Source: Patescibacteria group bacterium (GTDB lineage: Bacteria > Patescibacteriota > UBA1384 > XYA2-FULL-43-10 > 1-14-0-10-43-13). From it: a stretch of DNA of 33,424 bases. The notes under the pieces were generated by a model. The model saw nothing but the letters and a program-made list of their open reading frames with translations, was not told the DNA's origin and did no database searches. The position numbers were made by a program, and so were the translations under genes. Within the stretch, counting starts at the first letter, position 1, and every line of letters starts with the position of its first letter. Shown one piece after another: positions 11,391 through 13,379 of this stretch. Location of the stretch: the NCBI GenBank assembly GCA_038216025.1, contig JBBQQK010000003.1, positions 1 through 33,424 on the forward strand, read 5' to 3'.

Positions 11391-13379
11391 ATGAGGAGAG
11401 GGAAGCTTTTTAAAAAAATATTCATCGTCATCTTTACGGTATCCTATTTTTTATTTTATTCAACGCCATCTGTTGAGGCAGTCGTTCCGTACAATTTTCA
11501 ATTCAACCAAGCTGTTTTGTCTGAATCAAAAATTGCCGGGACACCTTTTATGCTGAACTTTGAATCATTTAACCCTAACAACGGTTTATATTTGAATTTT
11601 TCCGGGTGGGTATCCCTAAGCGCATCAAATTCTAAGGGCCAGGTGGTGATCACTCCTCCTATGGTTTATGTCTCAGGGGGAGAATTTAACGGCTCTGTTA
11701 GAATAGATGCGGCAGATCTTAATACCACTATTACTGCTTCTGCTGTGGGATACAGTGATTCCGTAAGTTCAGCTTTTTGTATTAACGCAGATCCAAGTCA
11801 AATCTTCTTGGGCATTGCCGGAGGAAACAATCAGGTTGGAAGAGTTTCTAATGTGCTGGAGAACTTAATAAAAGTTCGTCTTACCGATCGATACGCTAAT
11901 CCAATAGAAGCAGTCGGGGTCATGTTTAAAGTTGCTAGCCAACCGAATGGAGCAGCTGGTTCTCTCAGTGCTACCAACCCTAGTACAGACGCAAATGGAT
12001 ATGCTTTAACCAGCCTCACACTCGGCAATAAAGCTGGAACTTACCTAATCACGGCATCTCTCTTGGGGTCGCTGACTACTTTGGCCGCTCCGGTAAATAT
12101 TTACGAGACGGCTATTCCAATGCCTCTAAGTAATCTGTCTGTAAATCCAATTCTGTCTGTCGTGCCAAGGGGAGCGCAACAAGTTTTTCAGGCTAGCGGA
12201 TTTGATCGGTTCAATAATCCTGTGTCTTTGGGAAATGTGTCTTGGAGCGTTACTAATGGAGGAGGTACAATTGATAATAACGGTATCTTTACAGCTGGCA
12301 CAAAGGTAGGTAATTTTCAAAACACTATCAAAGCATCTGTAGGCGCAGTGGGGGCTGCTGCTTCGGTCAGCATTATAAGGGAAGATGACGAGTCGGATAC
12401 CCAGAAGACCGAGAATGAAGGCAGTCAAGGCGCAGGCGTTCCAGGTGATACTGGCGACCAGGGGGAATCCGGTTCCGGAGTCGCTAGCAGTGGATCTGGC
12501 AGCGGACAATCTGGTGTTACACAGAAAAAGCTTGAAGGCCAAGGCGTGCTAGATCGAGTTGCCTTGTCTCCCAATATTATTCAAAGTGAAATTAACACCA
12601 GAAATCCAATTATCGCAACTGCTTATGACAAATATAATTTTGCTATAAACGAAATTAACTTCAAGTGGTCGCTTGAGGGAGAGGTTGGAGAGCTTATTTC
12701 TGACACTAGCGCCAATGCTGAACTTGTTCTACGCAATCAACCCGGCAATGGAAAAATTACAGTCAGCGCTATTCAAAACGATATCTCGAAAACAGCTGAA
12801 CTGGTGGTTGCATCGAAACCAACACCTGGAGGCGTTTTTATTTTTGATGAGATAAGCGGACCCAAAAAGGCCGGAGAATCTTTCAAGATTAAAATCACCG
12901 CAAAGGACAATAGCGGCAATATATTAGCTGATTTTAAGGATCAGGTTGCCCTTAGGGATTCAACTAATACAATGATACCCACGGCAATAAATGAATTCAA
13001 AGACGGCGTATGGGAGGGGGATATCACAATCTCGGTAGGTAAAAAGAATGTGGTTATAGATGCTATTTCTCCAGGTCTAAATGGAGTATCTAATACGTTT
13101 GAGGTGACGGGGGAGCCTGCTCATATCGCCGGCGCAACGTCGGGCGCAGGAGCCTTGGGGTCAATCAAATTTTTGGGGGCTGGATTTGCCGCCGGTTTTG
13201 GCATATTGGGCTCAGCTCTCGGAATGGCATGGATGGCAGGCAGAGGATTGGAAGCAATCGGAAGAAATCCTATGGCCAAATCGAAAGTGATGGTTAACAT
13301 GTATTTAGGACTGATCCTCGGCCTTATCACCGGTGTTTTGTCTTTGGCTGCTGCCTTTATTATAGCTAGACCAGGATAG
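11391..13379 (+). CDS. secreted multi-Ig-like (invasin/Big-like) protein fused to a C-terminal ATP synthase subunit-c-like hairpin lacking the ion-binding carboxylate
   Basis: Signal peptide ending VEA, Ig-like repeats (DRYANPI, DRFNNPV, DKYNFAI) and a Gly/Ser linker. The last ~73 aa are [66 protein letters not shown]. The gene occupies the atpE position directly before atpF. Confidence 0.85.

Follow-up and report, generated by a model that had tools for sequence, protein, structure and literature searches.

The locus described here raises the question of what an ATP synthase subunit c can do when it is fused to an exported protein. The locus lies in 33,424 nucleotides of DNA from an ultrasmall bacterium of the Patescibacteria group (GenBank assembly GCA_038216025.1, contig JBBQQK010000003.1, positions 1 to 33,424 of the forward strand), and this whole stretch is referred to as the window. 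At positions 11391..13379 on the + strand, where an ATP synthase operon would have atpE, one gene encodes a protein of 662 amino acids that we call the fusion, or IgC. It combines a signal peptide, a series of Ig-like domains and a C-terminal hairpin of the subunit c type. The gene heads a second F-type operon, which is present beside a canonical one in the same genome. This arrangement is genuine and conserved. It is a variation on the F-type ATPases with a highly unconventional rotor subunit, and the function that we propose for it is inferred.

The fusion protein and its c-type hairpin

The fusion gene is a single open reading frame without interruption, as read directly from the sequence. 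It is divided as follows.

11391..11480, + strand: predicted signal peptide, amino acids 1–30, ending in PSVEA and followed by VV, with a basic N-terminus and a hydrophobic helix at residues 2–23 of the structural model
11481..13112, + strand: ectodomain, made up of domains D1–D3, a Gly/Ser linker and domains D4–D5 (Big_1 match for D2, AlphaFold2 model, Foldseek)
13113..13379, + strand: junction with a conserved IAGA motif, c-like hairpin (helix 1, R-N-P loop, helix 2) and stop codon (PF00137)

The fusion belongs to the Bacterial Ig-like domain group 1 family (Big_1, PF02369), which matches amino acids 156–227 with 48.3 bits against a Pfam cut-off of 34.9. Invasin_D3 falls below its Pfam cut-off. 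An AlphaFold2 model based on a 22-row homologue alignment has a mean pLDDT (predicted local distance difference test) of 80.3. In addition to the signal-peptide helix it contains five beta-sandwich domains (amino acids ~34–132, 138–242, 248–329, 387–476 and 482–573), a disordered Gly/Ser linker between D3 and D4 (333–380) and a C-terminal helical hairpin (helices 590–623 and 627–659). The junction between D5 and the hairpin is short (~17 residues) and is modelled with low confidence. Foldseek with the whole model returned generic multi-Ig chains only, with TM-scores (template modelling scores) below 0.25. Most of the homologues in the alignment have an A-x-A-type cleavage site at the predicted signal peptide. 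Some 590 amino acids precede the hairpin, so the fusion is neither a free-standing proteolipid of ~70–90 amino acids nor a set of tandem hairpins. A preliminary description, made from the DNA letters, had proposed this uninterrupted frame with a signal peptide, Ig-like repeats and a terminal hairpin, and had suggested the Big and invasin families for comparison. The Pfam matches and the AlphaFold2 model bear out the layout, with Big_1 as the family above its cut-off.

To judge by its sequence, the hairpin is recognisably of the c type and is without an ion-binding site. ATP-synt_C (PF00137) matches amino acids 595–658 with 32.9 bits (cut-off 24) over positions 1–60 of a 60-position profile, and a genome-wide scan gives 38.7 bits for the same family. 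The NCBIfam equivalog models for subunit c score far below their cut-off (30.9 against 85). A scan of D5 and the hairpin against NCBIfam at E ≤1 returned subunit c models only, with no match to the models of the mycoplasma X0 families. Compared with the PDB, the last 83 residues match 32 sequences at E ≤1, and 31 of these are c subunits. The top matches are Acetobacterium woodii c1 (E 1.4e-11), A. woodii c2 and the c subunit of Ilyobacter tartaricus. The one sequence of another kind is an anti-feeding prophage fibre, which is the weakest match (E 0.73).

The hairpin retains a Gly-rich helix 1 and the loop GLEAIGRNP, the same nine residues as in the canonical c subunit of this genome. R618, G619, R625, N626 and P627 are invariant in all 22 aligned sequences. 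In the HMMER alignment I. tartaricus E65 corresponds to a leucine of the fusion and Q32 to a methionine. Neither helix contains an aspartate or glutamate in any of the 22 homologues, and none of three giant variants described below has an acidic residue in its hairpin helices. The fusion thus has the profile and the R-(N/Q)-P loop of AtpE and no helix-2 carboxylate. In c subunits the N-terminus lies outside, the helix on the inner side of the c-ring is the N-terminal one, and the polar loop of the ring is the contact for gamma and epsilon. A. woodii c1 includes one hairpin without a carboxylate and sits in a mixed ring. The preliminary description had recognised a hairpin like that of subunit c, partly from this loop, and had argued that an exported N-terminal fusion fits the topology of c. 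The R-N-P motif of the loop has turned out to be invariant, PF00137 covers the hairpin in full, and the argument from topology now has profile, structural and comparative evidence behind it.

The fusion is found well beyond this genome. Among 5.8 billion proteins, 29 matches at E ≤1e-5 were found by a word-indexed search. There are 21 full-length homologues besides the query (653–742 amino acids, 33–55% identity), and all 22 sequences align through the hairpin. Nearly all of the 21 are unnamed in their annotation, and one has been automatically named subunit c. A scan of one genome per species produced 51 loci, 16 of which (numbered L035–L050) encode the fusion, with a b-like gene (b2) and a delta gene (delta2) downstream of it in 13 of the 16. 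The order IgC-b-delta-alpha-gamma-beta-epsilon is kept in all 10 complete loci and in three more that are cut by contig ends. A gene for a secreted protein, S1, follows epsilon2 in all nine loci that extend at least 1 kb downstream. The three divergent loci L046, L047 and L050 have gaps of 0.6–1.8 kb between gamma2 and beta2, and L047 also has one between beta2 and epsilon2.

These homologues bear on whether the gene is an assembly chimera, the product of a lost stop codon, or part of a pseudogenised second operon. The window comes from a single metagenome-assembled genome (MAG) at ~9x depth. In L045 (CPR2 GW2011_GWC2_39_10) the fusion gene and beta2 are each in pieces, which suggests frameshifts in an older assembly, and in L036 masked bases interrupt delta2 and alpha2. 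Against such an artefact or decaying duplicate stand the 21 full-length homologues, which come from independent assemblies, and the 16 species-level loci. All eleven core genes are open in the window, and the loop of the hairpin and beta2 are strongly conserved. A contig from a second assembler, probably from the same source sample and thus not independent data, has no differences over 11007–14200. We consider an artefactual origin extremely improbable. As far as these analyses can tell, the comparison excludes the chimera or lost stop codon against which the preliminary description had cautioned, and the search that it had proposed for the same fusion in the same synteny in other genomes of the candidate phyla radiation (CPR) has succeeded.

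Some matches proved to be unrelated or partial. L051, titled Caldisericota, does not encode the fusion, and its giant Ig proteins match the Ig part only. Sub-threshold c-like matches of 417 amino acids in genomes G018 and G022 are unrelated membrane proteins without atp neighbours. A profile made from the full-length alignment gave 20,533 matches at E ≤0.001 among 1.84 billion representatives, mostly giant multi-Ig proteins. About 10 of the best 150 extend to the profile's hairpin end, and the search gives no family size.

Conservation is uneven along the fusion. Across the 22 sequences the frequency of the majority residue is highest in the cytoplasmic loop (0.95), followed by helix 1 (0.76), D5 (0.74) and helix 2 (0.70). 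It is lower in the junction (0.58), and the distal domain D1 (0.55) and the linker (0.39) are the most variable parts. The membrane-proximal D5 is the best conserved of the ectodomains. A working joint between rotor and stalk predicts strong constraint on the loop, because the loop contacts gamma and epsilon in c-rings.

The same measurements bear on the idea that the fusion is a precursor. A cut at the IAGA junction would free a proteolipid and a secreted Ig protein, the fusion being a device for export or stoichiometry. IAGA is a conserved small-residue motif with the A-x-A pattern, it lies ~15 residues before helix 1, and the model has low confidence there. No signal-type hydrophobic segment precedes IAGA, however, and the conservation values of D5 and the junction fit a permanent tether. 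Even a cleaved product would form a ring without the carboxylate and without subunit a. Processing of this kind seems to us very improbable.

The second F-type operon

The genes that follow the fusion encode the subunits of an F1 head and a peripheral stalk, in the order fusion, b2, delta2, alpha2, gamma2, beta2, epsilon2.

13480..13995, + strand: b2, b-like peripheral stalk protein with one N-terminal transmembrane (TM) helix (weak NCBIfam subunit B match, E 1.5e-5, far below cut-off; position; 14 orthologues)
13952..14536, + strand: delta2 (OSCP) (Pfam OSCP, 59.2 bits, cut-off 22.3)
14526..16502, + strand: alpha2, paralogue of F1 alpha (Pfam ATP-synt_ab, 246 bits; TIGR00962, 527.9 bits)
16506..17390, + strand: gamma2 (Pfam ATP-synt, 148.7 bits)
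17405..18799, + strand: beta2, paralogue of F1 beta with intact catalytic motifs (TIGR01039, 616 bits)
18781..19098, + strand: epsilon2, beta-sandwich domain only (Pfam ATP-synt_DE_N, 57.3 bits)

The Pfam and NCBIfam matches confirm that the fusion directly precedes atpF-H-A-G-D-C, as first described, with b represented by weak NCBIfam matches only.

Another contig of the genome (1.06 Mb, 95% complete), C10, carries an entire operon of the canonical type. This operon consists of an atpI-like gene, atpB, a 75-amino-acid atpE with a glutamate in helix 2, and then atpF, H, A, G, D and C. A 128-amino-acid open reading frame between its atpA and atpG (C10:14607-14993, - strand) resembles a GIY-YIG nuclease by eye. 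The subunit a family (PF00119) has one match in the genome, within the canonical operon. The window operon has no match to PF00119 and so does not encode a whole complex, and no open reading frame has subunit a as its best match in 17 related loci that were screened. There are four matches to the alpha/beta profiles in the genome. Extra alpha and beta of the canonical type are present in all five of the other fusion genomes of the order; four of these genomes have subunit a and the fifth is fragmented.

The second operon can be compared with canonical F1Fo (atpBEFHAGDC; c-rings of I. tartaricus, c11, PDB 1yce, and of A. woodii, c1/c2, PDB 4bem). It shares the order E-F-H-A-G-D-C, the Gly-rich helix 1 and the R-N-P loop, and its homologues of b, delta, alpha, gamma, beta and epsilon score as F-type. 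It differs in having no subunit a, no carboxylate on c, and a c that is extended at its N-terminus by five Ig-like domains and a signal peptide. Its alpha has a long N-terminal extension and no arginine finger, its epsilon has no C-terminal domain, and it is a second copy. Without subunit a and the carboxylate the complex cannot be an ion-driven Fo, that is, it can be neither driven by H+ or Na+ nor pump them. The view of the preliminary description that this is not a conventional Fo is strengthened by both losses and by the separate canonical operon.

The fusion might instead decorate the ordinary synthase. One or a few fused copies would join the canonical c-ring and give it an external arm, and the F1 genes next to the fusion would encode a set of isoforms. 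This would suit the best PDB match, A. woodii c1, with its mixed ring, and the identity of the loop in the fused and canonical c subunits of the genome. The fusion, however, is always accompanied by a dedicated set of b, delta, alpha, gamma, beta and epsilon, and subunit a never accompanies it. Moreover, beta2 of the window is 51% identical to the canonical beta of the genome and 63–83% identical to its own orthologues, which points to a separate, co-evolving complex. We think it improbable that the fusion serves the ordinary synthase.

The subunits of the F1 part are altered to different degrees. In 10 of 10 cases beta2 keeps Walker A, GERTREG, Walker B and DELSE, as expected of a catalytic beta. 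Its orthologues are 63–83% identical to the protein of the window, compared with 33–55% for the homologues of the fusion, so the F1 part is strongly constrained. alpha2 has a Lys/Glu-rich N-terminal extension of ~130 amino acids. The canonical motif GVRPALN (G-x-R-P-A-x-N) reads GIFPAVN in alpha2, with phenylalanine at the site of the arginine finger, where the canonical alpha of the genome has arginine. The C-terminal helical domain is absent from epsilon2 in 11 of 11 orthologues, which have 79–118 amino acids and end after the sandwich. In canonical bacterial enzymes the C-terminal domain of epsilon inhibits hydrolysis.

Two further observations concern alpha2 and beta2. The alpha2 orthologues range from 552 to 798 amino acids in length, owing to low-complexity Lys/Glu-rich extensions at both ends. 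In all 10 beta2 orthologues a lysine replaces the glycine of canonical beta two residues before the tyrosine of the IYPA(V/M)D loop (KIYPAVD compared with GIYPAVD). This loop of beta2 is the homologue of the alpha loop that has lost the arginine finger.

Surface-protein genes and distribution

A co-directional block at 7309–21749 encloses the second operon. A known system with which its flanking genes can be compared is the Pam pilus of CPR bacteria, described in Ca. Mycosynbacter amalyticus (Troman et al., bioRxiv 10.64898/2026.03.03.709456). The text of that preprint describes a surface-fibre operon with Ig-like pilins and with chaperones that carry a C-terminal TM helix. The flanking genes in the window are listed below.

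7309..7866, + strand: coh1, cohesin protein of 185 amino acids (Pfam Cohesin PF00963, E 2.1e-8, 34.9 bits, cut-off 24.1)
7863..8912, + strand: coh2TM, with a signal peptide, a cohesin-like ectodomain (label by eye, from resemblance to proteins of the coh1 type), a Pro/Gln-rich linker, one TM helix and a cytoplasmic tail of ~70 amino acids
9002..9937, + strand: WxLIP_TM, secreted two-domain beta protein of 311 amino acids with a C-terminal TM anchor (Pfam WxLIP_PGBD, E 2.8e-5, 24.6 bits, below the cut-off of 27.3)
9962..11293, + strand: IgDoc, secreted Ig-like protein with a terminal dockerin (Pfam Dockerin_1 at amino acids 395–438, 29.7 bits, cut-off 22.9)
19328..20551, + strand: S1, secreted two-domain protein, distantly Pam-pilin-like (NF058581 CPR_Pam_pilin_C, E 1.7e-3, 18.5 bits, cut-off 55)
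20634..21749, + strand: S2, secreted two-domain protein, distantly Pam-pilin-like (NF058581, E 2.3e-5, 24.5 bits, cut-off 55)

The upstream genes are associated with the fusion in other genomes as well. Orthologues of coh1 lie upstream of it in L035, L036, L037, L038 and L040, and IgDoc and the chaperone-like genes do so in seven loci. WxLIP_TM has orthologues of 46–60% identity in eight loci, and by its architecture, which resembles that of PamC/D, it is a candidate tethered chaperone. A second WxLIP_PGBD-like protein of 311 amino acids (25585–26520, + strand, E 2.6e-5, below cut-off) is a paralogue outside the cluster. coh2TM has no Pfam match of its own. In six aligned orthologues its tail has ten invariant residues (E277, K278, R280, H281, G293, L295, L298, K301, G312 and K313). 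A juxtamembrane motif on the cytoplasmic side is common to coh2TM (LYLNEKKRH) and b2 (YFNxREKKL). A role for coh2TM as a b'-like partner in the stator is unsupported, since hhalign of the coh2TM and b2 alignments gives a probability of 2.9% over 20 columns.

Downstream, 10 of the 15 members of the S1/S2 family match NF058581 at E ≤0.01, the best at 1.2e-8, and the AlphaFold2 model of S2 has two beta-sandwiches. The cluster differs from the described pam operon in that S1 and S2 are below the pilin cut-off and in that cohesin and dockerin proteins do not feature in the text of the preprint as part of that operon. On contig C42 (5710–7340) a Pam-pilin-like pair with frames of 374 and 738 amino acids scores 28.6 and 28.1 bits with NF058581, below cut-off, and no ATPase match is nearby. 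A scan of 7000–22000 for promoters and terminators found 40 and 17, compared with 33.5 +/- 5.3 and 13.6 +/- 3.6 in shuffled sequences. Because these counts are not above the shuffles, operon boundaries cannot be drawn.

The fusion of ~660 amino acids occurs in 6 of 41 genomes of the order, counting that of the window. In an even sample of the phylum, searched with amino acids 482–662 of the query, at least 10 of 401 genomes carry a fusion, in six families. The records of the carriers are titled candidate division CPR2, Berkelbacteria, Saccharibacteria (third-party MAGs) and 'Patescibacteria group'.

There are two further types of fusion. Giant variants of 1663–2653 amino acids (L096:12433-19923, L099:11049-16040, L101:27-6452 and protein P0055) have the same hairpin without carboxylate at their C-terminus (...EAIGRNP...FIKFF). 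The giant fusion gene of L101 precedes genes for a 2420-amino-acid protein and a MacB-like ABC transporter, after which come b, delta, alpha, gamma and beta; the arginine finger of alpha is retained in this locus. The P-loop of alpha is degenerate in both of the giant-type loci examined (L096 and L101). Short variants of 255–333 amino acids (L053, L055, L059, L062 and L077, for example L077:9905-10714) join a signal peptide and a small ectodomain rich in beta structure to a c-like hairpin that has no carboxylate. Each lies beside its own genes for alpha, gamma, beta and a short epsilon, together with b-like and delta-like genes, and alpha keeps the arginine finger in four of four. The records of the short variants are titled Gammaproteobacteria or Nevskiaceae, and with genomes of 0.8–1.6 Mb these taxonomic labels look doubtful. 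All three types join an exported part to a carboxylate-free hairpin, so the combination of an exported domain with an ion-blind c is a recurring design and not a single accident.

Proposed function and relation to known systems

We hypothesise that the second operon encodes an ATP-driven mechanical actuator of a surface fibre system, which we hold to be about evenly poised between right and wrong. The atp operon would have been duplicated with its order E-F-H-A-G-D-C kept, and subunit a and the carboxylate of c would then have been lost. Copies of the hairpin would assemble into a membrane ring, and the conserved R-N-P loops of the ring would bind gamma2 and epsilon2. ATP would be hydrolysed at the sites of beta2, with an epsilon2 that is free of the inhibitory C-terminal domain. 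Torque or conformational work would be transmitted through the ring to the external arms. The arms would leave the membrane together near the axis of the ring, because in known c-rings the N-terminal helix lies on the inside, and the ~17-residue junction could let the D5 domains fan out or build a collar. The retention of gamma2, a short epsilon2, a b2-delta2 stalk and a catalytic beta2 suggests an enzyme that works in the direction of hydrolysis. A surface fibre is its most likely target because genes for fibre and adhesion functions are encoded around the operon. The likely job would be a mechanical action on that fibre, such as its assembly, turning, tensioning or release, as has been proposed for the mycoplasma F1-like ATPases discussed below.

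Several observations weigh against an actuator of this kind. In 11 of 11 loci with the ~660-amino-acid type, alpha2 has Leu or Phe in place of the arginine finger. Mutation of this arginine in F1 slows ATP hydrolysis by a factor of hundreds, and the loss in alpha2 argues against a fast motor, which is doubtful unless another residue compensates. No polytopic membrane protein was seen among the 13 co-directional open reading frames at 7309–21749, whose sequences were read by eye, so there is no visible membrane partner that would hold the b2-delta2 stator against the ring. NCBIfam places alpha2 and beta2 above the cut-offs for ordinary atpA and atpD, and sequence alone does not distinguish the F1 part from that of ordinary synthases. 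The matches of S1 and S2 to NF058581 span the full length of the profile and stay below its cut-off of 55. The Foldseek matches of the S2 model, which include CFA/I donor-strand pilins and MSCRAMM adhesins, are weak (TM-scores 0.2–0.4). No RNA run is listed that contains 11391–13995. Four copies of the hairpin (amino acids 588–662) co-folded with epsilon2 (amino acids 24–105) scored 0.00 against a mark of 0.32; controls were not run and this result is no evidence either way.

The first two of these points lend weight to a slower device. The ring would anchor the Ig arms, and the head would bind ATP and hydrolyse it very slowly, acting as a nucleotide-gated anchor or switch, that is, a sensor of energy state or a slow clamp on the fibre system. 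The Leu/Phe substitutions and the lack of a stator partner such as subunit a agree with this, as does the text of the Pam preprint, which links the pilus to energy metabolism through co-localised ATP synthase genes. The catalytic motifs of beta2 are kept in 10 of 10, however, and gamma2, epsilon2 and b2-delta2 are retained, which is hard to explain without torque. The related subfamilies also keep the arginine (the giant type in L101 and four of four of the short type). Such a switch or anchor is possible and, in our judgement, unlikely.

At the other extreme the fused subunits would build the rotor of a rotary device that works outside the cell and is powered by ATP. Some ~10 axial arms would form or grip the base of a Pam-like fibre, and the F1-like head would spin or wind the filament. 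We regard this specific arrangement as quite unlikely. The preliminary description had pictured a crown of adhesin arms that might rotate for attachment or motility, which stays an inference.

The actuator we propose has precedents outside the CPR. The closest characterised systems are the Type 3 'F1-like X0' ATPase and the Type 2 G1-ATPase of mycoplasmas. According to the text of PMC12994834, Type 3 is required for the MIB-MIP antibody-cleavage system and Type 2 is the gliding motor of Mycoplasma mobile. As described there, both types resemble the window operon in having an extra set of alpha, beta, gamma and epsilon, no subunit a, linked surface proteins and a proposed force across the membrane. 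Each type includes a protein (MMCAP2_0577 and MMOB1650) that has a signal peptide and ectodomains and ends in a pair of TM helices, and in its architecture the fusion agrees with this published description. In the same account b and delta are missing from the mycoplasma clusters, which contain in addition a 12-TM protein and a small protein of the cytoplasm; their 2-TM protein is not recognised as c-like. The window cluster, in contrast, has b-like and delta genes, no polytopic protein and a hairpin that is still recognisable as c.

The F1 subunits also separate the two. alpha2 scores 266 and 357 with the NCBIfam mycoplasma families, against cut-offs of 520 and 600, and beta2 scores 435 and 428 against 570 and 850. 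With ordinary F1 beta, beta2 scores 546 bits, compared with 342 bits for G1 beta. On these sequence scores the window system is not a member of the mycoplasma F1-like families. By analogy it may work like them in outline, and it may show the ancestry of their membrane part.

The N-ATPases (alternate F1Fo, atpDCQRBEFAG) are likewise encoded by a second F-type operon beside a canonical one. They differ in gene order and have retained both subunit a and a subunit c with an ion site. Against the NCBIfam 'alternate F1F0' models beta2 scores 527 (cut-off 752) and alpha2 459 (cut-off 750.5).

No description of a fused or carboxylate-free c in the CPR was found in the literature searched. The text of the Pam preprint (bioRxiv 10.64898/2026.03.03.709456) takes the ATP synthase genes to be a connection with ATP production and mentions no fused or carboxylate-free c, and the terms 'subunit c' and 'rotary' do not occur in it. 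In Southlakia epibionticum the F-type ATP synthase is dispensable, as stated in the text of PMC10633639 (Cell 2023, on Patescibacteria genetics). The remark in the preliminary description that no characterised example is known thus holds for the fusion itself, for which we found no publication. It does not hold for the principle, since the mycoplasma Type 2 and Type 3 ATPases, as set out in the text of PMC12994834, are characterised relatives in that sense.

Automatic annotation labels alpha2 and beta2 as ordinary atpA and atpD, so that inferences about energy metabolism in the CPR may count a non-synthase as a synthase. If the proposed function is correct, an ATP synthase derivative without an ion path would have a rotor subunit covalently tied to an extracellular protein. 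It would form a direct mechanical link between ATP hydrolysis in the cytoplasm and the cell surface, in bacteria that are attached to other cells. The 'ATP synthase genes' beside CPR pilus operons would then be a dedicated machine and not a metabolic neighbour. Since c, b and delta can still be recognised in it, the system may represent an evolutionary intermediate that helps to understand the mycoplasma F1-like X0, whose membrane parts have no assigned homology. Should the fused ring be part of a rotary appendage, it would be a new kind of prokaryotic motor, derived from the ATP synthase itself. The mycoplasma proteins for gliding and antibody release that have a signal peptide and two TM helices would, by implication, be descendants of c-rings.

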